Shown here: positions 13,785-48,143 of the stretch, in pieces
Position numbering within the stretch: position 1 is the stretch's first letter
How the letters are laid out: each line of letters opens with the position of its first letter
IMG/VR virus record: IMGVR_UViG_3300050343_000185
Direction: 5' to 3' (one strand)
Origin: a virus
Length of the DNA stretch: 64,000 bases
Translations under genes and position numbers: made by a program
The notes under the pieces: model-generated
Database searches by the model: none
What the model saw: the letters and a program-made list of their open reading frames with translations, nothing else
Told to the model about the DNA's origin: nothing

Positions 13785-14030
13785 TTATTTAGATTCAACA
13801 ATCAAACCCTCTTTGATTTGATTGTGTAAGAACCGCCCAACACTGCCTCCTGTCTTCAATTCAACTGATATCAGTTCTTTACACAAAGTATCTTCAAATA
13901 CTTGTATATTACTGCAGTTAAATGTATATTCTTTGTCTATATTACTATTATATGTTACTATAACAGTGTTATCAACAATATTAATCGATTTAATAGCTGA
14001 ACTGATTAAATTGTTGTACATCTTAGTCAT
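13785..14030 (-). CDS. Possible KTSC-like small protein
   Basis: SSAIKSI...Y.F...SVGRFLHNQIK pattern resembles KTSC domains. Confidence 0.4.
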   Translation of the reverse strand: MTKMYNNLISSAIKSINIVDNTVIVTYNSNIDKEYTFNCSNIQVFEDTLCKELISVELKTGGSVGRFLHNQIKEGLIVESK

Positions 14031-14860: not shown

Positions 14861-15094
14861 TCAAAACTTACGAGAGTTGAGTACTGTAAGTGTATTGTCT
14901 GATTGCTTCTTCTTTCGCTTCGTACCAGTTGTGAGGTTTTTGTATTCTGAGATAAGGATTGCATCGTCTTGGATTTCCCAAGTGATTTCTGTTCCTTCTT
15001 TCCACCCGAGTTCTTGACAGAGTTCGTCTGGGATTTCGATGAAGAAGTCATCCGAGTCATTGCATTCTTGTATAGTAGTAATAAATTTAGACAT
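14861..15094 (-). CDS. AbrB/MazE/SpoVT-type DNA-binding protein
   Basis: FIEIPDELCQELGWKEGTEITWEI swapped-hairpin signature. Confidence 0.75.
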   Translation of the reverse strand: MSKFITTIQECNDSDDFFIEIPDELCQELGWKEGTEITWEIQDDAILISEYKNLTTGTKRKKKQSDNTLTVLNSRKF

Positions 15095-15238
15095 TTTGAT
15101 CTATGATAGTATACCAACGGAGACGACGATCATGTTGTTTTAACGATTGAATAATAAACCATTCACTAGCAGTTGAGTTAATGGTGTGAGTAGTGTATCC
15201 ACCATCAATGTATTCAATCGTAACAACATATCGATGTC

Positions 15239-15909
15239 TCATTCAATGTAACCGTTCTGTTCTAAGTATTTACGTGTCAAGGGAGTTGGTTCATATACTT
15301 CCCACATATTACCACCAGCACATGCTGCAAGAGCATTCATTGTCATATTTTCAGTACGACCTGCCCAACCTGCTTCTGCTTCCCAAGGTAATGCTGACTT
15401 AGGATATGTACGTTCTGCTAATACACGCCAGATCATAGGAACTTCATCCTCTGGCATAATAATAGCAATGAGTGAGTTATCAATAGTTCCTGCCATACAA
15501 TCTTGTGCAGCGTGCCATCCTTCATGTCTCATCACCATCATCAGAGTACCAGGTTTACCCATATAATCCTTATTCAGGAAGAAGTTATTGGATACTGTGT
15601 GATAGACACCACGATGACCTGAGGGAAATACTTTTGATCAGCAAGGAATACATTCACACCAACTTGATTGAGTGAGTGTAACATATTATGAAACTCACCA
15701 GTGACACTCGTGAATTCTTCAGTGTTATCATACTGTGATGAGATATCAAGCATCGAGTATACTTTCGTGACACCATCAGTGCATTCACCTAATAACATAC
15801 AACCCATACTATCCATGGAGTTGTATCCTTGAGTGATCTTACTATCATCAGCAAATGCTGGTGTAGTAAGAGTTAATGCTGCTGCTAGTAATACATTACG
15901 TAGTTTCAT
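15239..15909 (-). CDS. Signal-peptide protein with HExxH motif (putative metallopeptidase), split by an indel
   Basis: MKLRNVLLAAALTLTTPAFA signal peptide; RHEGWHAAQDC in the downstream fragment. Confidence 0.55.
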
Positions 15910-16027
15910 TTTGTTGCCCTTGTGCTTTGATTTGTTCAAGTATTTGTTCAGAGTCAGCATAACGTTGTTCATTACATGCTGTCATGTATTGTACAATGAG
16001 ATCACGCATCTCATCTGTAATAGGTAA

Positions 16028-16282
16028 TCATCCATCAATTTCAGGGAGTGAGAGATACAAGTTCAAGAGATCATCCTCATTATAGAATGCAGTCTCTTCC
16101 TTCTCCATACCATCAGGGTCCATCCATTCAAAGAACTCATCAGCAAGTGCTAGTGCCTTGTCAATCTCATCATTTGCCATGAAATAACGGAAACGTTCCA
16201 CACACCAGTCATAGATGTCATCACGTTGTTCTGAGAGACGATCAACAGTTGCAGCGTCGTCAGTGATTTTGTAGTTGCTCAT
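16028..16282 (-). CDS. Small acidic hypothetical protein
   Basis: Intact ORF in a contiguous operon. Confidence 0.55.
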   Translation of the reverse strand: MSNYKITDDAATVDRLSEQRDDIYDWCVERFRYFMANDEIDKALALADEFFEWMDPDGMEKEETAFYNEDDLLNLYLSLPEIDG

Positions 16283-16838
16283 GATTTGGTAGCGAAGAGA
16301 ATGTTGGCGAGGTGATCGTATTGAACGAATTCTACATCCTTAGGGAGTAGAGAGACGGCAGCAGCAGCAAAATCGTTAGGAAACTTCTTGAACAAGCGCC
16401 AATACTTCTGAACACCATCATAATCTAGATCTTCACGCGGAAGAACACGGATCTCCCACGCTCCACGAGTGTAACGATTAGGATACGGTTGGATGTAATT
16501 CCTTGATGTGATCTGATAGCATGTTCATTTGACAAAGACCTCGTTGAGTTTGGTGTGTTCTTCAGTTAGTTTAGCAATCTTGTTGCATGTGATATGCTAC
16601 ATGTATGCAAGATACTCTTGCTCTTCTTCATCAACTTCATCATAAGCAATGTCATAGCAGTCATCAATATCAACAGTGTTATCATCATAACACGTCATGC
16701 CATACATGGTATCCGTAGAAGAATCCATCGCATAGGCATTACCAGCAGCAACGAGATAGAACATAGAACGCGGGGAGTGAAAGCAGGGTGAATTTAGTAT
16801 ACTATGTATTTCAAAATTGATGAATGTGTCAACGTTTT

Positions 16839-17301
16839 TCACCCTGATATTATGCGTTCTTGATACAGATAACCTCCTGCCCAATCAGCATTCTCAAGCA
16901 AATTCACGCTCTGTGATGATACGAAGATCAAAACGCACTCCCTTAGCAGGTGCTTTGATAGATGCTGCTTTGTATACTTCACCAGTCTTCTTGTCAATGA
17001 AGCAGTGAACACTACGCGATTACCACCATCAGTAGTCATCATCACCTTGTGATACTTACGACCAGTGTCAACAGTGAAACGATAAGCACCAATGTTATTC
17101 TTCAGGTCAGCAATCTTCTGCTCATGATACTCTTTGTCATCAGGGATGCCATGAAAGAACTCTTGCACGACGGATGCTCTCGTTCACGAAGTCTTGCTCT
17201 AGTGCTTGACAGAGACGGAATGTGTGCCCTAGGATCGCTTGTGCGATGTCCTTACGTGCCTCAGCAGATGCAGCGTAGTCAGCGAAGGTGGTGGCAGTCA
17301 T
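16839..17301 (-). CDS. Early hypothetical protein (GRKYHKV...HCFIDKKTGEVYKAAS), split by indels
   Basis: Begins MTATTFADY after the dyad promoter at about 17324-17382. Confidence 0.55.
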
Positions 17302-17656
17302 GTGTGTTTGTTTGTGTGAACTTAGTATAGGGCAGATTAGGCGTTGCGGATCTCACCACCGACCACTACGTCAGCTGGCACACGAGAGACAGTGTAGCGA
17401 CGGATCTGACCCTCAAACTGTCTCCATGCCTCAACAGTCTCGTTCACGATGCGGTTGTGCTGACGATCCATGCCCTTAGCAGTGGTACACTTGCCTTCCT
17501 TGCGGAAATAGATGATAGGGTTGCTGGGGACGCATCAGTGTCGATCTCGATCTTGTAGAAGGAGTGCTTGACGACTGTGGTGGTCATGTGGTGTGTCCCG
17601 TGCTGATGAATATAGTATAGGGCATTTGGATGCCCTGTGTGCGTTCAGTGGACAGT

Positions 17657-17872
17657 TCACGAGGTGGTCAGTCGAGACATGCTGATCATGAATAGGAAGA
17701 CTACCATGATCACCACATCCCATGATTTTGTTCTGATGAAGTATGGGATGCTAATCAGATCAGCAACACAATTCAACATCACACCAGCGATCACATTCAC
17801 ATGAAGAATCACAAAATAGGCAGTGATAACACCAACGCTGCCTAATACTCTTGCTTTACTATCGAGTTTCAT
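17657..17872 (-). CDS. Small membrane protein, two or three TM helices
   Basis: Hydrophobic 71 aa ORF. Confidence 0.6.
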   Translation of the reverse strand: MKLDSKARVLGSVGVITAYFVILHVNVIAGVMLNCVADLISIPYFIRTKSWDVVIMVVFLFMISMSRLTTS

Positions 17873-18033
17873 TCATAGTAGATCCAATGCTTCTGGTGAT
17901 AGTTCATCACTAGCACTCTGACGCCAGTTCTTATTCACCTTGTCAAAGTCTTCTACAATATCCCATGCTGGTTGAGCATCATCGATGTTCTCCAGAATCC
18001 AACGGTCGAGCATTACTTCAGAAATAGACATGA

Positions 18034-18315
18034 TTAATCAGTTGATACGAATGATTTGAGTAGTGGCATAGCAGAGTATGCCGTAGTGTTGCTTACGTCT
18101 ACAGTTTTACCTGGACGTTTGTGGTTAATTGGGGCAATGTAACATTGTTTCTTAGTGTTGTAGAATCCCCAGATCGATCGGACAGGCTCATTAGTGTAAC
18201 TAAACCGAGCATGATTCCGAATCCAAATGCCAACGACGTTGGACTTATGTTCATGAATCTCATAGGTGAAACCTTCTGGTGGTTGATGAGGGAAATCAGA
18301 TGGTAGTTCTGTCAT
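18034..18315 (-). CDS. Hypothetical protein (FPHQPPEGFTYE...IWGFY)
   Basis: Intact 93 aa ORF. Confidence 0.6.
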   Translation of the reverse strand: MTELPSDFPHQPPEGFTYEIHEHKSNVVGIWIRNHARFSYTNEPVRSIWGFYNTKKQCYIAPINHKRPGKTVDVSNTTAYSAMPLLKSFVSTD

Positions 18316-19076
18316 TAAAGATCAGCATGGAGCATCTCATCAACAGTCATCTCAAGTTCTGCTGCTCGCAGTTCTAATGCATCCATACCAGCAGTGTCAT
18401 CATCATGCAGATCAATCATGTCAGTGTCAATATGCTTGGTGAACTTACCAAAGAGTTTATCAAGAAAAGAGATCATTTACGAACTGTTTGTTGCTGGATT
18501 GTTGAGTCATAGTAGTTCATCATCTTGGCATCACGCTGTGCTAAGAATAGCAGATAGCAAGTGATAGTGACAAAGGCAAAGATGCCACTTAGGAGAAACT
18601 GTGTGTACCTCTCATCAAACTGCCATCGGGGTGTACTCAGAGCGAGGCATCTGCTCAACGTTGTAACCTGTGACCTCAGCACCGTTAGCGATACGCTCTG
18701 CCCACTCGTTACGTGCTGTGAGCATGGTGACAGTGCTGTAAGACTTGAGACCGTTAGATTCCAGGTGACACGCTTCTGGAAACGCTTGACGATCACGCCG
18801 TCCTCTTCAGCGATGAATGCTTCAGGAAAGAAGTCAACAGTGGTGACGAGTGTGGTGAGTTGCATGTGGTGTGTTCCTTTGACTCTCTTAATATACACGG
18901 TTATGGGGTGCTGTGCGCGTTTGGTAGACAGTTCTCAAACTGGTTGTAAAGGGCAGCATCGTTGATTCCATTCTTTACCATACAGTCGGTTGAATATCCG
19001 AGAGGACACCCAACCATAAGATCCATCACGTATCGGATCTCAGAGGGCGTTAGAGGCACTTCTATAGTCTGGTCAG

Positions 19077-19961
19077 TCATAAGTGGTTCAAGACGCTTGT
19101 GGGCGATTGTGGAGGGGTCTCAGGACACACTGATCTTAGTCGATCTGATGCGATTTGGCAATAGTGCTCATCAGAATCAATTCCAATGAAGTTTCTATCA
19201 ATACCTAGAGCAGCAACGCCAGTTGTTCCACTGCCACAAAATGGGTCAAGTACGGTAGAATTAATGGGAGAATAGATTTTGATAAGATACTCCATCAAAC
19301 TCACGGGTTTAACTGTAGGATGATCGTTATCTTGTCCCTTCTCTTTACGTGTGGCACGAGGAGCATAGAAATACTTTTGATGCTCATGTTGTACATCACC
19401 AATGATATTTGATGGATAGCGTCCATCAGGATTAGCATCTACAGTTCCATACTCTTTCTGTGTACCTGTAGTTTTACCATCTTTACCAAATGTGCGACGT
19501 TTAGCACCTTGTGCCACCCAACCAGTAGGAGGTTTCTTATCCCACGGAATACGAGTGTTAGTTGTATCAATCATTCCGCATCCCCATTCCTCAAAGTTAT
19601 CCTTGAGCGTACCTTTGTACGGTTTCTGTGCTACGACAATGGGTTCGTGTGCGGGTTTAAGTTTATTATACTTGGGCATCTTGGTGGTAGTCATCCACAT
19701 GATCTGGTCTTTAATGATAAATCCCGCGTCTTCTACATTACATGCGAGTCTATGATACAATTCAGGAGAACAGAACGCAAGACAGAACGCACCAGGGCGA
19801 AGTGTACGATATACTTCACGCCAGATGTCTACATCAGGAACAGAATGATCCCAATGATCCATACCCATACCATACGGAGGGTCAGTAATACAAGAATGAA
19901 AAAAGTTCTCCCCATAAGTGGAGAGAACAGATTGGCAGTTACCAGTTAAAATTGAGAACAT
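19077..19961 (-). CDS. Beta-class N6-adenine/N4-cytosine DNA methyltransferase
   Basis: Motif IV DPPY near the N-terminus; HPTVKP and motif I DPFCGSGTTG near the C-terminus; likely start MFSILTGNCQ at 19961. Confidence 0.9.
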   Translation of the reverse strand: MFSILTGNCQSVLSTYGENFFHSCITDPPYGMGMDHWDHSVPDVDIWREVYRTLRPGAFCLAFCSPELYHRLACNVEDAGFIIKDQIMWMTTTKMPKYNKLKPAHEPIVVAQKPYKGTLKDNFEEWGCGMIDTTNTRIPWDKKPPTGWVAQGAKRRTFGKDGKTTGTQKEYGTVDANPDGRYPSNIIGDVQHEHQKYFYAPRATRKEKGQDNDHPTVKPVSLMEYLIKIYSPINSTVLDPFCGSGTTGVAALGIDRNFIGIDSDEHYCQIASDRLRSVCPETPPQSPTSVLNHL

Positions 19962-20472
19962 TAGACTCACAAAGTTGACGATCAGAGTGCTTGAAATAGT
20001 TGGTACGCTTCCAACCACCAGATTGAGTGAACATGTTACGAATGTAAAAATTAAATCCACGGTTGTCATCCTGCCACTCTGGCATCGCTTGATACTTGTC
20101 AAGAACTAACTGAAGTTCAGCAATCAGACAAGCGAACAATTCACGCTTACGATTAGAAACTACATCATCTGAAAAATAGATGGTAGTCTCGTTGTATTTG
20201 GATGAACTGAATACATAAACAGTGCCTGACTTAGGCAAACCACCATTATATGTGGGATATGCTTGCTTAGAAGACTTACACTCAATGTCAACAGTCTTGC
20301 CGTTGTCAAGAGTTACACGGAAATCAGGAGAGTTCTGAGGACCATTTGGTTGCCAAACGTATTTGTAACCAAACTTGTCAAGCAATGCCATGACTTGATT
20401 CTCATGAAGAGGATTATCCTGAGAGTTAGTCGTGAAAGGAAGAAGGAGTACTTCTGACCAGAATTTTTTCAT
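19939..20472 (-). CDS. PD-(D/E)xK nuclease, restriction-endonuclease-like
   Basis: QPNGPQNSPDFRV...DIECKSS catalytic pattern; overlaps the MTase start by 23 nt. Confidence 0.7.
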   Translation of the reverse strand: MKKFWSEVLLLPFTTNSQDNPLHENQVMALLDKFGYKYVWQPNGPQNSPDFRVTLDNGKTVDIECKSSKQAYPTYNGGLPKSGTVYVFSSSKYNETTIYFSDDVVSNRKRELFACLIAELQLVLDKYQAMPEWQDDNRGFNFYIRNMFTQSGGWKRTNYFKHSDRQLCESNVLNFNW

Positions 20473-20595
20473 TTGTTTTTACTTTTGAATGTCTCGGACT
20501 TAATTGCCCGTTGTACAGTGGAGTCTTTAGGGCGCTTCCTCTCCCATGAACCTAATATACACCAGTTTGAGGTCTGTGTCAACCCCCTAGTCCAG

Positions 20596-21165
20596 TTAAC
20601 GAAGTGGTGGACCAGTGAACCATCCAACGATGCTTTTTCTGATACCATGTGTCACTGGAGTTACCTGATGTAAAATGTGACTAGAAAAAACTATCAATGT
20701 GCCACGTTTTTTAGGCACAGAGAAAATATGATATGGATCTTCTGAGTCTGGTGTTTGTGGTGTTGCTATTTGTAGTACACCACCCTCGTAATCATCATTT
20801 AAAACTAATGAAAACGAGAGTTTTCGGACAGAAGATCTACGAACAATCTTCTTAGTATCAATAGCATCAACATGCCATTTATAGTAATCATTTACATTGT
20901 AATGTGCATATTGGAATTGGTTGTTATCAAATTGACAAATGTCGTAATTATACATCTCTAGGTTGACATCCATTACGTTGTCGTAACAAAGTTCTCCAAT
21001 GTAATGAGATGAATCAATAAACTTAACTTTAGTAGATCTCCAATTAGAATTTTGATTAAAAGTTAATGCTTGCTTCCAGTCACCTATCAGGTCCAACTCA
21101 GCAATCATCTCATTTAATATTAGATCGTCAATTCTAAGTTGGCGCACAGAAAAAGTGTCTATCAT
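20596..21165 (-). CDS. 2OG-Fe(II) oxygenase
   Basis: YKWHVD (HxD), RKLSFSLVLNDDYEGG, HQVTPV, RKSIVGW. Confidence 0.9.
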   Translation of the reverse strand: MIDTFSVRQLRIDDLILNEMIAELDLIGDWKQALTFNQNSNWRSTKVKFIDSSHYIGELCYDNVMDVNLEMYNYDICQFDNNQFQYAHYNVNDYYKWHVDAIDTKKIVRRSSVRKLSFSLVLNDDYEGGVLQIATPQTPDSEDPYHIFSVPKKRGTLIVFSSHILHQVTPVTHGIRKSIVGWFTGPPLR

Positions 21166-21249
21166 TGATCACTAAAGATAGGGATGATGTTAGTTTTAGC
21201 GTGTTCTGTTTTGTTAATGTGTTGTTCCCACATGCTAGCATCATCTAAG

Positions 21250-21483
21250 TTATAGAAGATCGCTTGCTGTTTCGCTTGCCCCTTCTTCTTGTTCTTCATC
21301 CACACAACTGCGTACTTCATCCCAATACTCTCGAAAAACACATAAAGTTGACTGATAACGACCATGACGACATGATGGGTCAGGTCGATCGACATAACAA
21401 ATAGTGATATACCTATCACTGATAAAGTCTACCCACCCTGTGGTGGCGTGATACTGAACCTTCATACCACGAGTAAATTTCAC
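21250..21483 (-). CDS. Small hypothetical protein
   Basis: ORF with 4-nt overlap to its neighbour. Confidence 0.5.
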   Translation of the reverse strand: MKFTRGMKVQYHATTGWVDFISDRYITICYVDRPDPSCRHGRYQSTLCVFREYWDEVRSCVDEEQEEGASETASDLL

Positions 21484-21680
21484 TCGTCAACCTCTTCAAA
21501 TGGTTGACGATTTTGATTCTCTACTTTAGGAAGACGGAACATCTCTTTCAAGTCATTCAACTGATTTAATTGACGTTGGAGATTGTCAATCTGTGCTTGT
21601 AAAATCTGAAAGTTAGAATCATTGTTATTCTGCATCATCAACATGTTGTTGATTGCTTGTTTAAAGTCTTCTTCAGTCAT
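21480..21680 (-). CDS. Small coiled-coil hypothetical protein
   Basis: ORF with tight overlaps. Confidence 0.55.
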   Translation of the reverse strand: MTEEDFKQAINNMLMMQNNNDSNFQILQAQIDNLQRQLNQLNDLKEMFRLPKVENQNRQPFEEVDE

Positions 21681-21931
21681 TAGTAGCGTTCAGGAATACG
21701 GTGGTCTAGGTTAAGAGCAGTGTTGCCGGTCATAAGATCTCGAAGAGACATAGCACGACAGTATGCTGTCTTGTGATATTCTATCACATCATCGACGCCA
21801 GATAGCATCTCTTCATACGTTTGTCGTGCTGATACTTTATCATCGTTGAGGTAATCATCGATCGCATCTTGCATACGATCTTTACGCTGTTTTGAATACT
21901 CATTTTTCCAGTTGATTTCAGTTTTCATTAA
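21680..21931 (-). CDS. Small hypothetical protein
   Basis: 3' part of ORF 21680-21973; start approximate. Confidence 0.5.
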   Translation of the reverse strand, partial: LMKTEINWKNEYSKQRKDRMQDAIDDYLNDDKVSARQTYEEMLSGVDDVIEYHKTAYCRAMSLRDLMTGNTALNLDHRIPERY

Positions 21932-22142
21932 AGTCTTCATTACGACGTTTGTCAAGGTATTCAATGATCTCACTACGCCATTCTAACAACTCATGATAGC
22001 ATTGCTGATCATGTGCGTCCTGACGTAGCTGATAGTCTGGTTTGAGAACGCTCTCATAGAAGATATAGAACGCATCTTTACGTTTCTCGTGTTTTGTGGT
22101 ACTATTCCAATCCATGGGGTTCGACGGACGCTCTGCTACCAT
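21918..22142 (-). CDS. Small hypothetical protein
   Basis: ORF near a TTGACA-18-TATGGT promoter-like sequence at about 22138-22167. Confidence 0.5.
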   Translation of the reverse strand: MVAERPSNPMDWNSTTKHEKRKDAFYIFYESVLKPDYQLRQDAHDQQCYHELLEWRSEIIEYLDKRRNEDFNEN

Positions 22143-22152
22143 AGCACAGGTG

Positions 22153-22614
22153 TCAACCTACTGTCAAGTCCTCAAATTGTCTCAAACGGCATTGGTGGAC
22201 ATAAAGATCTTTAATATTTCCGTTAACATCAATAATATACTCCAATTCAAATGTGGATTGACCAACGCAAATTGATCTGATATAGTCTTTCTGTTCATTA
22301 GTAATAAGTTCCAGTCCACCCTCACGAGAGAGCAGATCAAGAATACCATCAGCAATATTTGTATTCTTAACAGTCTTGTTTAAAAACAATTCATCATCAT
22401 TATCAAAAATCTCTGGATAACTGAATGCTAAATGTAATTTAATATCTGTACTATCTGTCAATAGAGATACAACTCCTTTACAAATATCATATCTTTTGGT
22501 AAGAAGACGATACAATTCTGTTAGGAAAGAATTCTCCGGTACATCAAAGTTGTAATGACCATCCCAGACAGAAACTTGAGTAACGACGCCATATGAGTTA
22601 TATGACATACCCAT
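22153..22614 (-). CDS. Hypothetical protein (AT-rich block)
   Basis: Intact ORF overlapping its neighbour. Confidence 0.55.
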   Translation of the reverse strand: MGMSYNSYGVVTQVSVWDGHYNFDVPENSFLTELYRLLTKRYDICKGVVSLLTDSTDIKLHLAFSYPEIFDNDDELFLNKTVKNTNIADGILDLLSREGGLELITNEQKDYIRSICVGQSTFELEYIIDVNGNIKDLYVHQCRLRQFEDLTVG

Positions 22615-23020
22615 TATTTACTTCTTCCATCGCATCATGATTGTTAGTAATGCTTCTAATCTTAGTTCTAAAATCTAAGATATTGTCATTACCAATCTCA
22701 CTAATAAATTTATTCCAAACAATAGGATGTTCAACAGTAGAGAATCGAATTGGATTTTTACAATAATATGACATTATATTATTATCTTTATGCTCAATAT
22801 AAAGATATTTGTCAAAAACGTAGTTGTAGTCTGTTGTGTGTTTTTGTTTGTAATTAAATAATTTATTTAATTTGATAATCATATCAGATTCCATGTCCGG
22901 AAGATATGCAGAATCAACCAAACATGTAAATCTTCGTGGCATCATCTCGATTGTCGAAACATGCTCTTGTGTGTTTACATTGTATTTCTCTACAATGTGA
23001 AAGTTATCTGAGAACATCAT
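22598..23020 (-). CDS. Hypothetical protein (AT-rich block)
   Basis: Intact ORF, 4-nt overlap. Confidence 0.55.
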   Translation of the reverse strand: MMFSDNFHIVEKYNVNTQEHVSTIEMMPRRFTCLVDSAYLPDMESDMIIKLNKLFNYKQKHTTDYNYVFDKYLYIEHKDNNIMSYYCKNPIRFSTVEHPIVWNKFISEIGNDNILDFRTKIRSITNNHDAMEEVNNGYVI

Positions 23021-23382
23021 TCGTTTGTCATTACGATTTGACCAATAGAGTTAGCAAGAGAATAGAAAATGTAATTTTCTGGTGTAGTAACACTCTCCTG
23101 ACTATCTGGTAGATTTGACTCCAAGAAATTTAACATATCATCAAAATCATCTACCTCAACAAATACGTGCTCAGAGTTCGTTAGAAGAGTCCACAGATCA
23201 GTAGGAAGAATATCTTTATACAGTTTTTGTGAGGCATTAATAGCATCTACATCAGAACTGGCATTCCAACCAGTCGATCTGAGATATAATATCGCTTTGC
23301 CTTTGAGAACAGCGTAATTCTCAATAAAATTATCAAAGTAGAATGCGTCGTAAGATGAGTTCATTTTAGTATTAGTTTCCAA
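23017..23382 (-). CDS. Hypothetical protein (AT-rich block)
   Basis: Intact ORF, overlaps. Confidence 0.55.
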   Translation of the reverse strand: METNTKMNSSYDAFYFDNFIENYAVLKGKAILYLRSTGWNASSDVDAINASQKLYKDILPTDLWTLLTNSEHVFVEVDDFDDMLNFLESNLPDSQESVTTPENYIFYSLANSIGQIVMTNE

Positions 23383-23891
23383 GCAACAGTTACTCTCAAC
23401 CCAGTAAATAATCTAGATGTTCCCTCTGCCATGTGTGGTATTTCACCGGGGAAAAGAATAGCAGAATTTGGAATAGGGTTTTTATATTCCAATTCATTTT
23501 GATTGCGGAGAAATATAGTTTTTCCTCCCCACTCTGGTCTCCATGTAGGGTTTACATAGTATACTAGAGTTCTACCATTCGATTCATACCAGTCAACGTG
23601 AAACTCTCCTTGAGTACCAAACGTGTGACCATTAGCATATACATCATATAGATCATAATCTTGATGGGTTTTTTCCCTAATGATATTTAGAAGATAATCA
23701 GAAAAATATGAATCTTCTAAAAAATCCATACGCCAAAATGGAATACTATCTGGTCTATTATATTTGTCAACATGTGACCCATGACCAAATCTCCATTTAG
23801 ATTCTTCTACTTTAGACTGTATCTTCCTAACATCATTAAAAGAAAAAAAATCATTATATTGTATAATATCATTCATTGTGTCTGTATCCAT
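23361..23891 (-). CDS. 2OG-Fe(II) oxygenase (prolyl-hydroxylase-like)
   Basis: YANGHT...FHVD, WRPEWGGKT, IPH...RVTVAW. Confidence 0.88.
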   Translation of the reverse strand: MDTDTMNDIIQYNDFFSFNDVRKIQSKVEESKWRFGHGSHVDKYNRPDSIPFWRMDFLEDSYFSDYLLNIIREKTHQDYDLYDVYANGHTFGTQGEFHVDWYESNGRTLVYYVNPTWRPEWGGKTIFLRNQNELEYKNPIPNSAILFPGEIPHMAEGTSRLFTGLRVTVAWKLILK

Positions 23892-24352
23892 CCAATAAAA
23901 ACATTTCTAGTCCCAAACTTAACTTCATTCACACGATGCAATAGATTTCCTGGATATAACACTGCTTTGCCTTTAGATAATTTGATATTTCTCCCATTCT
24001 CTATCACCAACTCTCCCCCATCATAATCATCATTGAGAAAACAAGTCATACTATAATCTGATCTCACACCACCACATGGATTAGCATCATAATGATCTTC
24101 ATATTTGTCTCCCACACCATATTTTACAAAATATATTTGCGACATTTCAGATACATGTAAGGGAACTGTACGTAATATTATATCACGACAATACATGTTT
24201 AGATCATAATGTCCCGGTCCATCAAATACTGTTTGGCAGCATTTATCTGCAGATGGATTACTAATCTTACCATCCTTGAACGTTAAGTAATTAAAATATT
24301 GACTGATATATGTTAGTTGTTCATAATTTAGTAAATCAATCTCATATATCAT
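23873..24352 (-). CDS. PKHD-type 2OG-Fe(II) hydroxylase
   Basis: YEDHYD, RSDYSMTCFLNDDYDGGEL, HRVNEV...RNVFIGW. Confidence 0.88.
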   Translation of the reverse strand: MIYEIDLLNYEQLTYISQYFNYLTFKDGKISNPSADKCCQTVFDGPGHYDLNMYCRDIILRTVPLHVSEMSQIYFVKYGVGDKYEDHYDANPCGGVRSDYSMTCFLNDDYDGGELVIENGRNIKLSKGKAVLYPGNLLHRVNEVKFGTRNVFIGWIQTQ

Positions 24353-25293
24353 AGTTCATTTTCATCAACAAAGTAATTTGTCCAATCAACTTCCACGTCT
24401 TCATTAATGTTCAACTCTTTCATTAGATCTAGTACTTTCTTAGTAACTTTTCTGGTTGGAGCTATTCCTCTTTGCGCTAAGTTAAACATGTTAACTTCTC
24501 TATTCTTAAAGAAGTCAGTAGATGCCTGAGAATCATGTTTTACCCACTGATTTGTATCATTAATATCCATGAATACTGGAGCATCAGTTACACCATCTTC
24601 CAATTTACCTTCCGGATACATCTTTCTATACTTAATCGGATCAATTGGAAACTTAAGATTGTAAGTATACTTAAAGTATTCCAATCCAGAGTTATGAAAT
24701 TCTGAGTCTGCAGGACTTGGTGTAGAGTGTTCTCTAATCCATTTTCTCCAAGTAATCCAAGCGTCTTTCTCGCCTTCATAACTATCTTCTATATCAGGGA
24801 GAATTCTCCAATCAGAAAGACTCAACATTTCACGCTTTTGTCTTTTTAATTTAAACTGACGTTGCTCAAAAAATGCTGCTTCTTGATCAATACCAGCAAC
24901 TACCTCATTGACCTTAGCATTTTTTACTTCTTGTACGACTTGAAAGAAAGTATCTATTAACTCATATAGTTCTTTTGCTTCTTGAGAACTGGCACCAGTA
25001 AACTTATAAGTTTGAAGATATGTACTCTCTGTATTAAAATCATACTTCACTCGTTTTCTTTGACAGAAATATGTATCGTCATTAAAGTATTGAAAATACT
25101 CAAGTAAATCTTTGTCGGTATGCCAAAACTCAGAAATTTTTGTATTAAGAAACTTATTCTTAATTTCCTCATCCATTTTATATCTTTTGCCGTTAAAATC
25201 TCCAAGCAATTTAAATCCAGATGATGCAGAAGCACCATCTATAATGGTATTATTAGCAAAATCAACTTGTATGAGAGCGATTCTTTGTTCCAT
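24349..25293 (-). CDS. Tail fibre assembly chaperone-like protein
   Basis: REMLSLSDWRILPD...W..WRKWIR resembles the DWxQLPD...WxxYRQxLRD chaperone motif; follows fibre genes. Confidence 0.55.
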   Translation of the reverse strand: MEQRIALIQVDFANNTIIDGASASSGFKLLGDFNGKRYKMDEEIKNKFLNTKISEFWHTDKDLLEYFQYFNDDTYFCQRKRVKYDFNTESTYLQTYKFTGASSQEAKELYELIDTFFQVVQEVKNAKVNEVVAGIDQEAAFFEQRQFKLKRQKREMLSLSDWRILPDIEDSYEGEKDAWITWRKWIREHSTPSPADSEFHNSGLEYFKYTYNLKFPIDPIKYRKMYPEGKLEDGVTDAPVFMDINDTNQWVKHDSQASTDFFKNREVNMFNLAQRGIAPTRKVTKKVLDLMKELNINEDVEVDWTNYFVDENEL

Positions 25294-25302
25294 GAGAGTT
25301 AA

Positions 25303-25965
25303 TTACGTTTAATGTACCATCCTGTCAAAATATATTTATCTTGAGTAAGTACAGTATTTCCTTTATGTGTATGTGTATATCCTGCTGGCCAGATAACTAC
25401 AGTTCCAGCAGTAGGTTTGATTCTACGTCTTTGATAAAAAATTCTGTTTCAGCTTCACCATCTGGCATATCATTAAGATATATCATCCAGACTAATTCTC
25501 TACTAGCATGTGTCTCATCAGAATTTTCATAGTGCCAAAGATGATAACCACCACCAGGAGGAGTTTTCTGTATTTTAATATCAGAAGAAATCATTTTTGT
25601 TTTAATCAAAGATTGATATTCTGAAACATAATGTTTTACACAACATCTTAAAATTGAATTGATTTTTAAGCAAAGATCTCTATTTGCATAATTCATGACC
25701 ATCGCAAAATCGTTTCGATTTAATTGTCCACCATATACATCTTCGGACCTGATCACATGATCAGGAGCGCCATATTCTTGTATTTTAAGACTTGGATTGA
25801 CAACACATGCTTGATCAATTTGATTGTCTACAAATTCACGAATTTCTTCACATAAGGGACGAGGCATAAAATTTTTCCATACCCCTATAAAATCGTCAAA
25901 TTCACAATGGTGATATTTTTATCATACATCAATTCATGTGGTCTATAATCAGGCAATGATGACAT
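25303..25965 (-). CDS. 2OG-Fe(II) oxygenase, split by indels
   Basis: KIQKTPPGGGYHLWHYE; shifted frame continues WPAGYTHTHKGN...KYILTGW. Confidence 0.85.
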
Positions 25966-40400: not shown

Positions 40401-43400
40401 ACATCAGTTACTGCTACGTCGCTATCATTAGCATACGTTGTAGAAACATCAGGAAGTACTTCACCGTCAAATGCTCTAATGAATACCTCATGAGGTGTTA
40501 CAGAAGAGAATGGAACGTCAAAGATATGTGATACTTCAGTTTCAATACCAGCGTTAACAGTATTAGTTAACTTAGATTTGTATGTGTGTAAATCATACTT
40601 CTCATCAAGAATAAACTGATAGACATCAATTTCAACGTTAGCATCAATAGACTCAGACTCAGAAGCATAGATGTAAATACCTGCTGCAGCATTCTCTTTA
40701 GAGGTTGCTAGCATCAGTTTTGTCTGATCACTACCATTAAAGAATGTAGTAGTAGAATAATCTTCTGGTTGTGTTCTTCTGCCAGGAGCAATTACATAGT
40801 AAGTTTTGTTAGTCTCAAAACCATTAGGTAGTCTGACGAGACGCTTGTCTACATCAACATATTTACCAGAAGCAACATCAAAACGTGGACGTGGAACTAA
40901 TCTGACTGGTGTTCCAGTTTCAAAGTCATGTGGATTAGAAGCACCAACACCAGAAGTGTTGATTGTAAATACAGTTGCTCTAGACGCGAATAGTGAAACA
41001 CTAGCGGTTTGCTCTTCTCTATCAACTGATCCCACACCACTGTTAATAACAGTAGTAATGTTACCAATCAAAGTAGTAATAGCATCAGCAGTTCCAGAAC
41101 ATTCAAGACCAGGAGTTGTATCTACTAGTACATCAGGAGCAGGAACAGAACCAGCTGGTCCAACAATTACTGTCTTAGGTAAGGTATCTGCCCACTGACC
41201 TTTTTCAAATGTGAAGTATAAACCTAATCCATTAGTATTAGTTTGCTGTGCGATGATAGTATTACCAAAATCAAATCTAGAGTTCTGAACTCCAAGTTCA
41301 ATTTCAGTACTACTTACAATTCTCTTGACATATACGTTATCTTGAATTGTAGATATAATTGGTGTAGATCCAGGAGTAAGAAGACCATTAACAACACTAC
41401 TGATACTATACTCAACTACTCGCATACCAATTAGAATGCCACGAGTATCATTAACGTCAACAATCGCACTACCAGCAGTGGTACTACAACCATCAATCCA
41501 AACATCAAAGTTTCTCATGGCAGCAGTTGCTACCTGACCAACGTAGTTCCATGCATCAAGAGTTTCAGTCTTCTCACCATCAATGTAAGTTAGGTTGTTG
41601 CCAACATAGTATGCTTCACCTGCCTGTACTGAATTAATGTTACCGCCTAGTCTTAGGTCATTAACAACAGCATCAACAATATATGAAACGTCACGATAAC
41701 ATTTAGATTGCTCAGCATCTGTAGTAAATCCACCCCTTGTTACAACAGGTAGAGTTGCTAGTGAAGTTCCAGAGAAAGCATCATCAGCAATATCAAATAG
41801 AGTCTCAATAGATCCACGAACGTTAGCACAATCCCACTCACCTTGATCTAGTGGAGGAAGACTATCTAGATTACCGGCAGCAGTTGTATCACAAATAATT
41901 TCAACTAAAGTATTAACAGTAGATACAACGTCAGAACAATTGCCTGCTACATATCCACCTGGTTGTGGCAGAACACTACTTGTGCTTGGTTGTGCTGGAG
42001 CAGTTCTTGTGATACCACTGATACTACCAACACCAGCATCTGTTCCAATTGCTTGAATGATAGTGTCTAGATTAGTTGTTGTTGCGTTGATAGCATCAAC
42101 ACAAGCAGGTGTATCCCAATCAGTAACAATGTTGTTGTCAATTACCTGAGTTTCTAAGTTGGCAGACTTAGGAGTAATAGATATGTTTCTGAGAACATCA
42201 GCAATAAGGTTCTTAGCAGCAGTAAATACAGCAGCTGCTTCATCACGCTCAGGATCTAGGAATGTTGCTGCAGCAACACCATAACTAACACAGTTATTAG
42301 TCGCAGAAACAAATGTATGAGCAGATTGTGGGTTATGTTGTACAGCACCAGCAAGAGCACTTACAAATGTATGTGGAACACCAACAGCAGACCCAGCATT
42401 ACCAACATTAACAGTAATAGTAGTTGCGGTTACTGCTGTGATTGGAATAGACTTACCAGCGTAAGGATCAGATCCAGGACGTGGGTAAGTATGTTGAGTT
42501 ACATTGTTATCTTGATCACAAGTAAAGGTGAATGAATTATCAGAAAGAATAACACCTTCAGTCACACTCAACGAATGATTGCCAATGGTGATTTCCATAT
42601 CACCAGTTGTGGAATTGTATACTGCGTTAGATGGATTAAAACTCTGGTTAGCACTAGAAGCACCAACATTTACAGTCACTGTAGAAGCATCTGCTGCAGT
42701 GATTAGCATCCACTGACCAGCATAAGGATCATCAGCACTTGGTGATGCGTGTTGTGTCTGGTTGCCATCCATAGTACACGTAAAGATGACACTTCCGGTA
42801 TCAACTCTAATGTATCCACCCTGTGTCATATCATGACCAGGAATAGTAAATACTGAAAGACCAGTTGCTGGATTATAAGATACCGAGGTAGGGGTGAAAT
42901 TCTTTCTCTGCTTACTTAATCCAAAGTAAGGCATTATGTTAGTAACGTAAATCTCAGCAGAATCATAAGTTTTAGCATTTCCGCCAAACTTAACGTCATA
43001 CATAACTTCTTCTAAGACGTTATAGACATCATCTAAACAATCTTGCTCAGTATTAGTTGCCTGAGGAGTGTACGAAGGATATGATTCCTTCATTGTTTCA
43101 TATGCTTGCTTAGCAATAAACTTCTTATTTGCTAATACAAGATCATAAGCATCCGCATTCATATCGGATACAATAGGAGGATCTCCTACTTGATCAAGCG
43201 TAATTGTAGAATCTTTATAGTATAGTTGGTTGTTGATTGCTAAGTTAATAGCATCAGCGGCTCTCTTAAATGCTGTGATAGATGGTGATTCTTCTCCAGC
43301 AAGACCGTCACTAATTGGTGCGCCTAGGCGATCAAAATATGTCCTCGCCATCGCGATAGAATAGGCATTACCACCAAACCAAAGATCTTGTCTTATAGCG

Positions 43401-46400
43401 TCAACAATATGTCCAATGTCTCTTCTACACTTGCTCGCACCCGTTAGTAAATCTCTTTCTGTAGGAGTAACATAGTTTGCGTTTTGTACATTTAGAATGC
43501 TGGCACTACTACCATCACTAATACATTGAGTTATAATTGACGTTAAAGATGCAATTGAATTTTGTACATCAGCACAAGCAGTGGTGTCAGTGTTAACAAC
43601 ATCTCCGTTTCCATTTCCATATATCGACTCGCCAGTAGAAACGGTAAGGTCTTGATATCCAGAACTCAATTGGTTAGATACAGCATCCTGTAGATAATCT
43701 CTAGCAGCGTTGAATGCAGCAATACTCTGTAGTTCTTCACCTTGTAATCCACCAGTTATCCATTGCTGACTGCCAGAGAAATATTTACCAATAAAGGTTC
43801 TACTCCATAAGTTACCACCAAGGAAAATATCCATCGCTACAGCATCGATGAAATATCCAATATCTCTTTTACACTTTGCAGATCCACCAGGGAAGACAAA
43901 CGATGGATATAAAGTAGAGACCTGACCAATAGCATAGTCTTGGGCATCTGCTTTGTTTCTTCTGATTAAACGATATGCTGTCTTAAATCTATTCGTAGCA
44001 GTTTCAGCAGGATCTCCAGGGAAGGAGAAGAATGGAGCTCCATCATAAACAGCAATTTCAGCAAGAGCATTATCAAGAATGTAATCTCTATTTTCTGTAA
44101 TTAGATTGTATGTGTCTCTGTACCTGGCAGCAGGATCAATTTTCTGTGCTAGATCAATGGTTACACCATTTGTAGTGTCTCCATCATTCTCTGCTTGAGA
44201 TCCTGTCTTACCAGAAGTAATACTGCCACATGGAAGATTGCTATAGAAATTATAAGGACTGTCGGCAAAAGAAACAGGATCATATAGATTTGCTTTTACA
44301 CTTAGCAAGTTAGCTACTGCTTGCTTACATAGATCGCGAGCTCTTCTAAATGCCCAAAGTAGATTTTCTTCTTCGCCAACCAATTGTCCAGTAAGTGTCG
44401 TATCATCAGCAAAGAATCCTTGTACAGCAGCAACTGTATTATAATTACCGCCGTCTCTTAAATCTTCTGCTACAGCATCAACAATAGTGCCAATATCATC
44501 AACACTAACAGGAGTACCACCAGGACTAAAGACTGACAAAGAATTTAGAGTCTCGTTAATGATATTCTGTCTATTAGCAATAATTAGATTGCGAGCATCA
44601 AAATAACGATTCGCGTTAGGATCTCTTCCAGGATTAACATAAGAAATGTCCTGAAGTCTTGGATACTTCTCAATGATATATCCAAAGACTTCCTCTTGGA
44701 TCATCTTGCGGTTGCTTTCAATTAAATTAGCAGCATCTGCATAGATGCTATTAATAGCGAATCCAGAAGGATTGAGAATTTGAGGAGCAGCAATATACTT
44801 AACAAATCCAGTTGGTTCTAGCGTTGCGTTAAACTCTTCAGTTCCACCAGCAACTGCTGGATCTAGTCTAACATATAGTTTTTCTCCAGACTTAGAACCA
44901 AGTCTATATCCACCAATGCTAACAGCAGGACGATTTAGTGGACTGGTAATCTCTTCACTACCAAGGAATAATTTAGTGTAGTTACTAGTATCTTGAGTTG
45001 TTCCAGAAATATCAATAGTATAGTATTGAGTTCTCGTAATATTAGCAGTACCACTATCAACCGCTTCAGGTGGAATGATATCAGTAATGAAACCACCTTT
45101 ATCCTGGTTAAAGGCAAATCCTTTGAAACCAATCGCATGAAGTGATGTATTACCAAAGTTAGAGTTCGAGTTCGTGATGGACATATCGCCACCACTTTCC
45201 ATCAGGAAGTGATCAGCGAAACCAACAGCGAAGATAGAAACGTTCTGAATGAATGCGTCTTCTGATGCTTTAACGTGGAAGGTTCTCCAGTCATCCTTCC
45301 AATAAGAATCACCCTTAGCGTGATAAGGAACAGTAGCAAACGCATCAGTTAGCGATGCTTGGTTCCAGGTGTTAGAATACTCATCATAACGGATGAATGC
45401 TCTGTCATCCTTTTGCAACGAAACGCCCGTATACTGAGCGATAACCATTGACTTAAATCCTGTCGCCTTAAGACCATTCGCCCAGATGCCACAAATACCC
45501 CACGTAGAGCGAATTGATACGTTAAAGACATATGGAGAGGCAGACTCTACACTATCAACTTCAGCGAGTGTCTGAGCGTTCTGACCGAGTGCTGGTGTAG
45601 TATCTACACTAACTGTTTGACCCGAAGCAATACCTGTACCAATTGCGCTGACAACTTCAGCAACTTCGTAAGTAAACTTGCGTGGATCATTTTGATCAAT
45701 ATCAATGATTGGGAAGATACCTTCCAAAACACTATCGATATTTGTATTAGAAATAGCAACGAACTGACCAGCAAAGTATCCGTGGTCTACTTTAGTTGTT
45801 ACTTCAATTTCAGATGTTGATGCAGCAATGCTAGGAATAGTCGTAGCATCATTAAGTGTTAGTGACTCAATAACTCTAGAGTCAGATAGAGGACCAACAA
45901 TACGGTTCTCCTGAATTCTAAAGTCAAACTCACCAGGATCATCAATTGTTGGTTGATATTCAGAGAAACCTTTAGCAATCTTTCTGTAGTAAAGACTTAA
46001 TTCTTCTGTATCTGCGTATTCAAATACAGTTAGTTTGTGGTGAGAATAGTTGGGAGCAGTTTTTCTAGTGAAATCATTAGGATCGTAGTATACCTCACCA
46101 GTTCCTTCTACAGTATTGTAAAGAGGAGACTCAGCAGTAGTTTGACCATCTTTTAAAGTAAACTGCCAGAAGTAACAACCACCGGTTACGTTAAAGATAG
46201 CAGAGCGAGGAACAGTTACTGAAGCAGGATCAGGAACATATAAAGGACGTATAACTGTACGACGGAGGTCATAACCTACCAGAGATGAACCCCTAGGGAT
46301 GATAGCACCACCCTCAGTGTTGTTAAACTTATAAAGGACATTATCAGGGTTGGAAATATCAAGAATGGAATTATCAGTCCACTCATTATTTGCTTGATCA

Positions 46401-46690
46401 AATCCAAACGCAGAGATACCACTAGTGTCTACAAGACCAGGGCGGTTATCAATGTAGTGAATACCAGGCATCAGCATAATGCTGAACTGGTCAAACCTAT
46501 CATTACCAAATCCAGGTAGATACGAATATCTTGCAATCTCTAGAAAAGCACGCTGGATGCTCTTGAATGGCGTTACAGGTGAGTTACCTCTATTAGATAA
46601 CGCATCTGTAGCGTTGAAATCATCAGGAGAAACATAAAGATACTTACCAGTTTTGCTGCTGATAAGGTTATCCAGACGTGTTAAAGGCAT
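34488..46690 (-). CDS. Giant tail fibre/virion protein of about 4000 aa (fragments 37697-46690, 37264-37743, 35081-37210 and 34488 to about 35090)
   Basis: N-terminal beta-helix-like segment (GNSPVTPFKSIQRA), central helical repeats, C-terminal fibre domains; TATAAATA late promoter at about 46731-46738. Confidence 0.8.
41040..44740 (-). repeat. About five phycobiliprotein-like helical repeats inside the giant fibre protein
   Basis: KCKRDIGY, KCRRDIGH, DCLDDVY, KCYRDVSY, each followed by ...(F/L)GGN, plus a Cys-less copy VDDIGTIVDAVAEDLRDGGN. Confidence 0.7.
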
Positions 46691-46840
46691 GATTAATCTG
46701 ACCCTGCGGTATATCTTTTATCCTAGGATTTATTTATACACGGGGTCTATACCTATCTCTGAGAATAAGCATTAATGCTATTTCTTTAAGACACATGTAA
46801 ATGTATCCAAATTGTTCTCTATAAGTTGTTCTATACATAA

Positions 46841-46912
46841 CTCCCCTTCCTGGGATCGAACCAGGGACAAATTGATTAACAGTCAACCGCTCTACCGCTG
46901 AGCTAAAGAGGA
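46841..46912 (-). tRNA. trnN: tRNA-Asn(GTT)
   Basis: Cloverleaf TCCTCTT...GTTGA CT GTT AA TCAAT...GTTCGATCC; no encoded CCA. Confidence 0.95.
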
Positions 46913-46917
46913 ATGAG

Positions 46918-46990
46918 AGCCAAACACAGGACTTGAACCTGCGACCTGAGCTTTACAAAAGCCCTGCTCTACCAGCTGAGCTAGTTTGGC
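46918..46990 (-). tRNA. trnT: tRNA-Thr(TGT)
   Basis: GCCAAAC acceptor stem, anticodon loop TT TGT AA, GTTCAAGTCC. Confidence 0.95.
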
Positions 46991-47505
46991 ATCCTAGTAA
47001 AATTGAATGGACCGTAATCAGATCCCCATACTTTTTGATGAGTTTCTGAATGAAGACCACGGTCCATTACTTGGTAATTTGTTTCAGTAAGAAGAACTTC
47101 GTTATTAACATAAGTTCTAACTCCTCCACGCATTACATAACACTCACAAGTATCATTCTTACCGGTGAATGTCTTTGTTGCTGTCTCTTTGATAATATTA
47201 TCACATCCCTCTCGGTATGTCAAGAGGTCATCAGTAAGCTTATCAAGGTTCATACATCCAACAAAATCTGATGGTGTTCTGATCTCATAGTTCTTGAGTC
47301 TAAGGTAATCACCTTCATCAACTACATCAATTACAAATTGTCTATAAGGGCGATTTAATTGATAGTTGTATGCTTGCTCTCCATAGAATCTAGTCTCCCC
47401 AATTTTACGATGACTAACACGAATGTGAGCATAACGAGTAGGATGACTTTGTGCTTGACGTTTGTTAGCAAAAGTTCCCTCAAATAATTCAAGAAACGTG
47501 TTCAT
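46981..47505 (-). CDS. cpeT: T-type phycobiliprotein lyase (CpeT/CpcT family)
   Basis: GTFANKRQAQSHP..YAHIR, FYGEQAYNY...PYRQ, DRG...KVWGS..GPF.F motifs. Confidence 0.92.
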   Translation of the reverse strand: MNTFLELFEGTFANKRQAQSHPTRYAHIRVSHRKIGETRFYGEQAYNYQLNRPYRQFVIDVVDEGDYLRLKNYEIRTPSDFVGCMNLDKLTDDLLTYREGCDNIIKETATKTFTGKNDTCECYVMRGGVRTYVNNEVLLTETNYQVMDRGLHSETHQKVWGSDYGPFNFTRMPN

Positions 47506-47770
47506 CGGGCATCACTTCAGGATTAATAAGATCTAATTCAAATAATACAGGGTGGCATTCTTCAGCAATCAAGTAATCAGAGTACTTAAAAATTTCTTCT
47601 AGTGTATAGTCTTGATTCATTGCTGCTTCTGCCAGTATCCATTTGTTATCTTTTTCCTCTTTTTCGAGAACGTCGAATGCAAATGGCATACTCTCAATAT
47701 AATACATCAGGACTGGTTCACTATCAACAAACACATGTTTGCGTGTGATTGTATACCTGAACTGTGCCAT
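47489..47770 (-). CDS. Hypothetical protein (MAQFRYTITRK...)
   Basis: Start at 47770 with AGGA SD; upstream of it lie a hairpin and tRNA-Leu. Confidence 0.65.
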   Translation of the reverse strand: MAQFRYTITRKHVFVDSEPVLMYYIESMPFAFDVLEKEEKDNKWILAEAAMNQDYTLEEIFKYSDYLIAEECHPVLFELDLINPEVMPDEHVS

Positions 47771-47781
47771 GATGTTATGGT

Positions 47782-47809
47782 TTCCTGTTAATGTTATATT
47801 TAACAGGAA
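47782..47809 (-). promoter_or_regulatory. Perfect 10-bp hairpin containing a late-promoter core TAAATA and covering the SD of the next gene
   Basis: TTCCTGTTAA-8nt-TTAACAGGAA. Confidence 0.6.
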
Positions 47810-47894
47810 TGCGAGTAGGGAGACTTGAACTCCCACGAGCATAATGCTCAACAGATTTTAAGTCTGGTGCGTCTACCGATTCCGCCATACTCGC
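47810..47894 (-). tRNA. trnL: tRNA-Leu(TAA)
   Basis: GCGAGTA acceptor, CT TAA AA loop, long variable arm. Confidence 0.95.
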
Positions 47895-47897
47895 AAA

Positions 47898-47970
47898 TGC
47901 TTCCTGAGAGGATCGAACTCTCCTTAGGCAAATTATGAGTTTGCTGCATTCACCAGATTGCTAAGGAAGC
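47898..47970 (-). tRNA. tRNA with CAT anticodon (Ile2 or elongator Met)
   Basis: GCTTCCT acceptor, GCAAA CT CAT AA TTTGC; promoter -10 TATAAT at 47980-47985. Confidence 0.9.
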
Positions 47971-48143
47971 ACTCCGTATATTATAACACGGATTAGGCAG
48001 GACGGGTAGGGGGTGCTGACAGATTGGTAAATGACTGTCGTTTAATGAATTCCCTTAGTTCAGGAGTCTCTTCCCACTCCCAAGTCTCTTCGTGTCCGTG
48101 TCTATCGATCTTCTTAAACTGTCTTTTTCATTGGAAAACTCCT

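Follow-up and report, generated by a model that had tools for sequence, protein, structure and literature searches.

When a bilin lyase gene lies directly upstream of a gene whose product carries repeats resembling pigment-attachment sites, do the two encode an enzyme and its substrate? The question is raised by a 64,000-nucleotide stretch of viral DNA (IMG/VR record IMGVR_UViG_3300050343_000185; the whole stretch is called the window here), in which cpeT precedes a giant tail-fibre gene. The window belongs to a T4-like cyanophage, and over this locus it is ~95% identical to Synechococcus phage ACG-2014e (Kyanoviridae). The initial annotation, made from the sequence alone, had proposed that the fibre, rather than host phycoerythrin, may be the real substrate of the phage CpeT.

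On balance we lean towards a different answer, in which the cpeT–fibre neighbourhood is a matter of genome architecture and not one expression unit, CpeT acts on the host system, and lyase and repeats are found together through shared inheritance within a clade. We favour this reading because the cpeT unit and the fibre gene have separate promoter motifs; because the N-terminal fibre domain was found in 447 phage records and cpeT of the long type, to which that of the window belongs, in 57; because in eight other cpeT-bearing phages the repeats, described below as phycobiliprotein-like modules, lie ~40–60 kb from cpeT; because three phages, S-SKS1, S-B43 and Sf-CH5, have Cys-bearing modules without detectable CpeT; and because the presence of cpeT needs only two changes on a tree of the fibre domain, with no independent replication. 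A further ground is that a variable accessory hot spot 'near gp5 with tRNAs' is known in T4-like cyanophages, and that the role of cpeT, present in 12 of 16 cyanomyoviruses, was called unresolved (Sullivan et al. 2010, PMC3037559).

In the mechanism that we propose, a host-type promoter would drive an accessory cassette made up of cpeT, the small open reading frame (ORF) overlapping it and four tRNA genes, located in the known variable hot spot. The fibre gene would belong to the core virion genes and have a T4-type late promoter to itself. CpeT would most likely act in trans, as a bilin-binding protein, on the bilin and phycobiliprotein (PBP) system of the host, which is the classical role of an auxiliary gene. 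The co-occurrence of cpeT and the modules would then stem from the inheritance of both by one phage clade.

Promoters and gene order at the locus

The cpeT gene of the window, by its profile match, encodes a homologue of the T-type bilin lyases. Its product passes the cut-off of the family profile PF06206 with a wide margin (E 8.5e-41; 140.3 bits, cut-off 21), and residues 4–171 cover positions 2–181 of the 181-position profile, the full length of the family. Reading of the ORFs, Pfam, PHROG and ARAGORN together bore out the positions and strands that had been assigned to cpeT, the fibre gene and the two tRNA genes between them (Table 1). cpeT is on the upstream side, and the gap of 290 nucleotides (nt) that separates it from the fibre gene holds tRNA-Thr and tRNA-Asn.

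Two promoter motifs of different types occur in this arrangement. The sigma-70-like motif TGtTATAAT, 9 nt ahead of tRNA-Met, would mark the beginning of a unit comprising tRNA genes, the small ORF and cpeT. The T4-type late motif TATAAATA lies ~40 nt before the ATG of the fibre gene, downstream of both tRNA-Thr and tRNA-Asn. By these motif matches, cpeT and the fibre gene do not share the single promoter of an operon, as the late motif stands between them. Since the promoter types differ, the two genes probably belong to separate transcription units, an early one and a late one.

The late motif is also rarer than expected. TATAAATA occurs once in the 64-kb window, against ~6.5 copies expected by chance, and the single copy is the one directly before the fibre gene. 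Its scarcity in the rest of the window could be a sign that stray late promoters are selected against.

The ORF upstream of cpeT, 93 amino acids long, had been suggested as a possible further component, and its tie to cpeT was upheld. It overlaps cpeT by 17 nt in the window. A homologue (33–100% identity) lies directly upstream of long-type cpeT in all 77 loci that have room for it, overlaps or abuts cpeT in the related loci, and keeps the invariant motif Y-L-x2-E-x2-H-P-x2-F. The ORF is a real and constant partner of long-type cpeT; it is absent upstream of the short-type cpeT of S-CAM8 and P-HM1. Its AlphaFold2 (AF2) model, with a predicted local distance difference test score (pLDDT) of 88, contains three strands and three helices. 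The model found no match among PDB folds (best E 0.64), the sequence found none in NCBIfam, and Atlas gave no lead above 0.77. We rejected a marginal match to the Pfam family 'Pathogen_betaC1' (25.6 bits, cut-off 25), which involved a TTG-extended frame and is probably due to chance.

Phycobiliprotein-like modules in the fibre

The first 610 residues of the fibre form a core cyanomyovirus fibre domain, which occupies the same genome region in the phage records that carry it. Downstream of this domain, the chain contains five larger repeats and five short helices capped by Cys. By sequence profiles and predicted structure, the larger repeats are modules of the PBP fold and true relatives of the PBPs. 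Their similarity to one another is far beyond chance, with E-values down to 3e-18 in windowed BLAST and hidden Markov model (HMM) comparisons. A profile built from the five modules gave 33 matches in the PDB, all 33 of them to alpha chains of phycocyanin or phycoerythrocyanin (best E 2.8e-4), and the aligned segments include the Cys84 site, K-C-A-R-D-I-G-Y-Y. Residues 857–1170, modelled by AF2 with 40 orthologues, reached a pLDDT of 88.8. The top rows of a Foldseek search with the model were all PBPs, at weak E-values of 0.025–0.25, and VIA-align of the predicted structure returned PBPs only, with Z-scores of 15–17.7 and root-mean-square deviations of 1.7–4.1 Å (mostly ~2 Å) over 133–155 residues. 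In these alignments, residues 12–202 of the model superpose on chain residues 7–177, at ~10–20% identity to PBPs.

Profile–profile comparison points the same way. When the modules were aligned by hhalign with ten true PBPs of a marine Synechococcus genome, the probability was 91% and the E-value 1.2e-7; these host proteins came from one metagenome-assembled genome (MAG) found in the search of genome contigs for CpeT. Against PF00502, the best single module of the window falls short of the cut-off (16.6 bits, cut-off 22.2; E 0.008), the S-PM2 orthologue attains 30–31 bits when matches in the same frame are summed, and many module homologues in a large protein collection bear a precomputed PF00502 match. 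A literature search found no paper on PBP-like domains in cyanophage virion proteins.

Several cysteines of the modules align to pigment-attachment sites. C940 aligns to beta-Cys82 of the host beta subunits. C1039 aligns to Cys153 of CpcB and to the Cys of G-D-C in CpeB, with an E-value of only 0.003 from a thin beta profile; the ranges agree with the structural alignment, and the match to beta-Cys153/155 applies to module R2 only. The fibre helix R[FY]xDAxxLIxxN aligns to the beta-subunit helix RLDAVNxIxxN that holds Asp39. C940, C1088 and C1039 are invariant in the 40 orthologues, down to 38% identity. Four of the five larger repeats have the Cys of a C-x-[RD]-D...D...GGN helix that all five carry.

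The five Cys helices reported in the fibre are real. C1039, C1530, C1585, C1621 and C1864 cap helices with the common motif C-[ASV]-[DNG]-[VAT]-x2-[STA]-[ITV]-x-[ST]-L, and the last helix ends at ~41042, which fits the reported limit of the region at 41040. Their description as beta155-like holds for C1039 in R2, where hhalign and the structural alignment agree, and extends to the other four helices by motif alone.

What the modules do can be read in more than one way. The Cys82/84-type site is retained in the modules too, and it is their best-conserved one: K-C-x-R-D is invariant in R2 and R3 across the 40 orthologues and aligns to Cys82/84 of PBPs. This site is not one that T-type lyases serve (review PMC10452541), and it is kept in the cpeT-less phages S-SKS1, S-B43 and Sf-CH5. 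Accordingly, the modules might carry bilin through autocatalysis or through host lyases of the S/U or E/F type, mainly at the Cys82/84-type site, and the phage cpeT would play no part in this. We consider this quite improbable, as the Cys is lost in several modules (R1, and all three of P-SSM3), the residue at Arg86 is often D, T or E, and no virion pigment is known.

The same repeats could instead be pigment-free structural domains derived from a captured PBP, whose cysteines take part in disulfide bonds or in the packing of a fibre outside the cell. The Asp aligned to Asp87 and the D...GGN motif are invariant even in copies that lack the Cys, which suggests a structural role of the helix. 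Capping-Cys helices also come in runs (C1530, C1585 and C1621) and are not paired one-to-one with the C-x-R-D helices, and a scan of metagenomic long-type cpeT loci with at least 44% identity (the S-PM2/ACG-2014e lineage) counted 2–10 modules per fibre in 43 loci, as expected of a spacer. On the other hand, the preservation of K-C-x-R-D-I-G-Y and of a beta-153-type Cys at such low overall identity to PBPs is hard to explain without pigment, and the sites lie on opposite faces of a PBP, so that a disulfide within one module would be unlikely. We regard a pigment-free role as a good possibility, short of probable.

Besides the modules, residues 1257–1430 of the fibre (~42400–42920, minus strand) consist of two tandem beta-rich repeats of ~86 residues with the motif F-T-C-x-x-D-x-N-x-x-x-H-x-Y-P-R. 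P-SSM3 has at least 12 copies of this repeat in its gp7-like protein. The repeat also accounts for apparent modules in P-SSM2, where a tblastn search with a mixed repeat query matched these beta-strand repeats; the module profile finds none there.

Fibre length varies between close relatives. The orthologous fibre gene of ACG-2014e (NC_026928.1) is annotated as 12.2 kb (~4075 residues), compared with 2997 residues in the window, and the N-terminal domains are 94% identical whereas the repeat regions are only 73% identical. Fibre length therefore changes quickly, probably via gain and loss of modules. In the S-PM2 RefSeq record NC_006820.1, an 11.3-kb fibre coding sequence (14001–25340) has 16 tRNA features placed inside it. 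The fibre frame is open over 3792 residues, with no stops, and the tRNA coordinates in that record therefore look misplaced.

Table 1. Positions of the genes, promoter motifs, modules and Cys-capped helices at the cpeT–fibre locus of the window, ordered from upstream to downstream
Feature	Positions	Strand	Basis
Host-type (sigma-70-like) extended -10 promoter motif TGtTATAAT	47980-47988	minus	read from sequence; function inferred
tRNA-Met (CAT)	47897-47971	minus	ARAGORN
tRNA-Leu (TAA)	47809-47895	minus	ARAGORN
93-residue ORF, phrog_4134, from ATG at 47770	47489-47770	minus	PHROG match, E 8.6e-40
cpeT, T-type bilin lyase homologue, long type, 174 residues	46981-47505	minus	PF06206, phrog_488
tRNA-Thr (TGT), 10-nt overlap with the 3' end of cpeT	46917-46990	minus	ARAGORN
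tRNA-Asn (GTT)	46840-46913	minus	ARAGORN
T4-type late promoter motif TATAAATA	46731-46738	minus	motif match; function inferred from T4-like phage biology
Giant tail-fibre gene, 2997 residues	37697-46690	minus	phrog_4527 and phrog_529
PBP-like module R1; Val at the Cys82 equivalent (V-S-V-D-D-I-G)	44297-44734	minus	module HMM
PBP-like module R2 (K-C940-K-R-D-I-G-Y-F)	43631-44122	minus	AF2, structural alignment, PDB profile matches
Cys-capped helix 1 (C1039), acting as helix H of R2	43517-43576	minus	hhalign with host CpcB/CpeB
PBP-like module R3 (K-C1088-R-R-D-I-G-H)	43196-43627	minus	HMM, orthologue alignment
PBP-like module R4, partial (D-C1218-L-D-D-V)	42905-43180	minus	HMM
Cys-capped helix 2 (C1530)	42044-42103	minus	sequence
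Cys-capped helix 3 (C1585)	41879-41938	minus	sequence
Cys-capped helix 4 (C1621)	41771-41830	minus	sequence
PBP-like module R5 (K-C1664-Y-R-D-V)	41474-41893	minus	HMM
Cys-capped helix 5 (C1864, P-G-L-E-C-S-G-T)	41042-41101	minus	sequence

Distribution of cpeT and the modules across phages

The order seen in the window is the rule in its lineage. In the scan of long-type loci, the fibre gene starts 270–3600 nt downstream of cpeT in 65 of 80 loci, and most of the others end too early. In eight further phages (S-CAM8, P-HM1, ACG-2014a, S-IOM18, S-MbCM6, P-SSM3, ACG-2014d and S-ShM2), cpeT is again near gp5 and the fibre gene, and the adjoining fibre is without modules. Their modules are carried by other giant ORFs of 3681–7312 residues, distant from cpeT; that of P-SSM3 is annotated as 'similar to gp7'. 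The synteny expected of a coupled pair therefore stands for the succession of cpeT and fibre within the window's lineage and fails for the modules in the other cpeT phages sampled. Nor did the adjacency survive as a sign of enzyme–substrate coupling, given that the promoters are separate and that the fibre gene belongs to the core set and occupies this position with or without long-type cpeT. The adjacency is largely architectural, and the layout of the genome together with the history of the lineage explains it best.

For co-occurrence, 21 species were screened with the Pfam CpeT family and the module profile, and the negatives were rescreened with a divergent CpeT sequence and a broad CpeT profile. 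cpeT and modules are both present in 11 species (the window, S-PM2, P-HM1, S-CAM8, ACG-2014a, S-IOM18, S-MbCM6, P-SSM3, ACG-2014d, S-ShM2 and ACG-2014f) and both absent in seven (P-SSM2/P-SSM5, S-SM2, S-SSM7, Bellamy, S-SRM01, S-CAM9 and S-TIM54). Modules without cpeT occur in three, namely S-SKS1, S-B43 and Sf-CH5, where neither Pfam, nor the single-sequence search, nor the broad profile detected CpeT, and where the modules bear Cys; cpeT without modules occurs in none. A raw Fisher test of the association gives p = 0.001. However, on the tree of the N-terminal fibre domain, which represents one gene as a mere proxy for phage phylogeny and leaves out S-TIM54, the presence of cpeT needs just two changes, one at the deepest split and one between ACG-2014f and P-SSM2. 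Both independent contrasts are concordant but are too few for a test, and the co-occurrence therefore provides no statistical support. The predicted co-occurrence thus came out as expected among the cpeT-bearing phages, and is qualified by the three module-bearing phages that lack the lyase and by the small number of independent contrasts.

The exceptions do not separate the explanations. S-SKS1 and S-B43 keep the capping-Cys helix in addition to the Cys82-type Cys, which Sf-CH5 keeps as well. P-SSM3, which has cpeT, has lost all three Cys82-type cysteines and keeps one capping-Cys helix, S-D-C-S-D-V. These patterns fit equally well with shared descent and with a rule by which the lyase needs the substrate while the substrate can use host lyases.

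At least three types can be told apart among phage CpeT proteins. The long type has ~174 residues and scores 140 bits against Pfam; the short type has 134–157 residues and scores 23–62 bits, an example being S-CAM8 cpeT (5158–5613); and a third, divergent type of 139 residues is encoded in ACG-2014f (1034–1453), with a Pfam E-value of only 0.03. A tblastn search with the CpeT of the window recovered the long type only, the other two being detected through Pfam or with a profile, and BLAST counts based on one type therefore greatly underestimate the spread of cpeT. A search of genome contigs with a CpeT alignment found no cpeT locus of a host and only two phage-like contigs, both deposited in MAG assemblies. 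One of these cyanophage contigs is 194 kb long; the MAGs that contain them bear the names 'Lewinella sp.' and 'Synechococcus sp.', and phage DNA has therefore been binned into bacterial genomes. No paper on the timing of cpeT expression was found in the literature search.

Several points weigh against an explanation by architecture and descent, and deserve to be set out together. The segment K-C-x-R-D-[IL]-G-Y differs very little from the Cys84 helix of CpcA, and the modules retain, by alignment, residues important for pigment sites, namely the Cys82/84 helix, the Cys aligned to beta-Cys153/155 and the Asp39-type helix. In the lineage scan, modules were present in the cpeT-adjacent fibre at every one of the 43 loci where 6 kb or more of the fibre gene could be read. 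Modules are present in 11/11 of the sampled species that bear cpeT and in 3/10 of those that do not. An early protein can last until late proteins appear, and CpeT might thus act on the fibre even if the timing differs. Finally, the CpeT of P-HM1 reportedly bound phycoerythrobilin tightly and did not transfer it to the host CpeB, which leaves room for another substrate of this CpeT.

Given its predicted fold and aligned cysteines, the fibre qualifies on structural grounds as a candidate substrate of a T-type lyase, and a pairing of the two is plausible. CpeT, possibly with its 93-residue partner, would attach bilin to the beta-153/155-like Cys of modules, which lie in the fibre here and in a gp7-like baseplate protein in other phages, and the virion would be pigmented. 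The match of the modules to the beta-type PBP fold and the invariance of C1039 across the orthologues agree with such a pair, as do the constant synteny in the window's lineage and the presence of modules in every cpeT phage sampled. In P-SSM3 it is the capping-Cys helix that survives beside cpeT, every Cys82-type Cys being gone; yet S-SKS1 and S-B43 have capping-Cys helices and no cpeT. The concordance of the two contrasts is also in line with the pair, but two contrasts cannot reach significance. Although a phage cpeT whose role was called unresolved (PMC3037559) leaves room for a phage substrate, the promoters of the two genes differ, and so probably does their timing; the modules are not beside cpeT in most of the sampled cpeT phages; and virion pigment was not found in the literature searched. 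We therefore judge an enzyme–substrate pair to be somewhat unlikely, and stay with the reading by architecture and shared descent. The genomic evidence goes no further than this: adjacency and co-occurrence alone do not demonstrate coupling, and a restriction of the modules to cpeT-bearing phages is contradicted by the three exceptions.

Light-dependent adsorption and comparison with known systems

Two questions that are 15–20 years old bear on this locus, namely the purpose of a phage cpeT that comes without the other genes of the lyase operon found in hosts (PMC3037559) and light-dependent adsorption that does not depend on photosynthesis (PMC6628666). In the dark, adsorption fails for P-HM1 and P-HM2 but proceeds for P-SSM2, and the light-dependent adsorption of S-PM2 is independent of photosynthesis (Liu et al. 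2019, PMC6628666). Both cpeT and modules are present in the light-dependent S-PM2 and P-HM1 and missing from P-SSM2, in a comparison of just three or four phages; P-HM2 carries cpeT and is of the same species as P-HM1, which the module screen covered. If CpeT and its 93-residue partner attached bilin to the fibre or baseplate modules, the pigmented virion would be its own photoreceptor, and this would explain both the phage cpeT and the light-only adsorption of S-PM2, P-HM1 and P-HM2. We hold this proposal to be unlikely. A virion protein with predicted beta-type PBP modules and both attachment cysteines nevertheless gives the two questions one concrete test.

Compared with the cyanobacterial CpcT/CpeT lyases (PF06206), the likeness consists in the full-length match of the window CpeT and in the beta-type fold of R2 with a Cys aligned to beta-Cys153/155. 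The known substrate of those lyases is a PBP beta subunit, whereas the phage candidate is a set of modules inside a virion fibre, with neither an alpha/beta partner nor a linker, and attachment to it is a proposal. Host cpeT is part of the cpeESTR operon; the phage has cpeT alone (PMC3037559).

The CpeT of P-HM1 belongs to the same family as that of the window, and P-HM1 also bears PBP-like modules. It differs in being of the short type (134 residues, ~40 Pfam bits) and in having no 93-residue partner ORF, and the modules of P-HM1 are found in giant ORFs at 54–57 kb and 82–83 kb rather than in the neighbouring fibre.

With the light-harvesting PBPs (PF00502: CpcA/B, CpeA/B and ApcA/B), the modules share, on predicted structure and alignment, the fold, the K-C-x-R-D-I-G-Y helix, the G102-G103 turn and the beta-153-type Cys. 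Unlike PBPs, they stand in tandem inside a fibre, are partly truncated, and have an added invariant D...GGN motif. As for the hot spot 'near gp5 with tRNAs', the window cpeT lies among four tRNA genes, with the gp5 baseplate-hub region on one side and the fibre gene on the other, and ACG-2014e has the same layout. Whereas that hot spot is variable, its content in the S-PM2/ACG-2014e lineage is constant: a small ORF, long-type cpeT and a module-bearing fibre.

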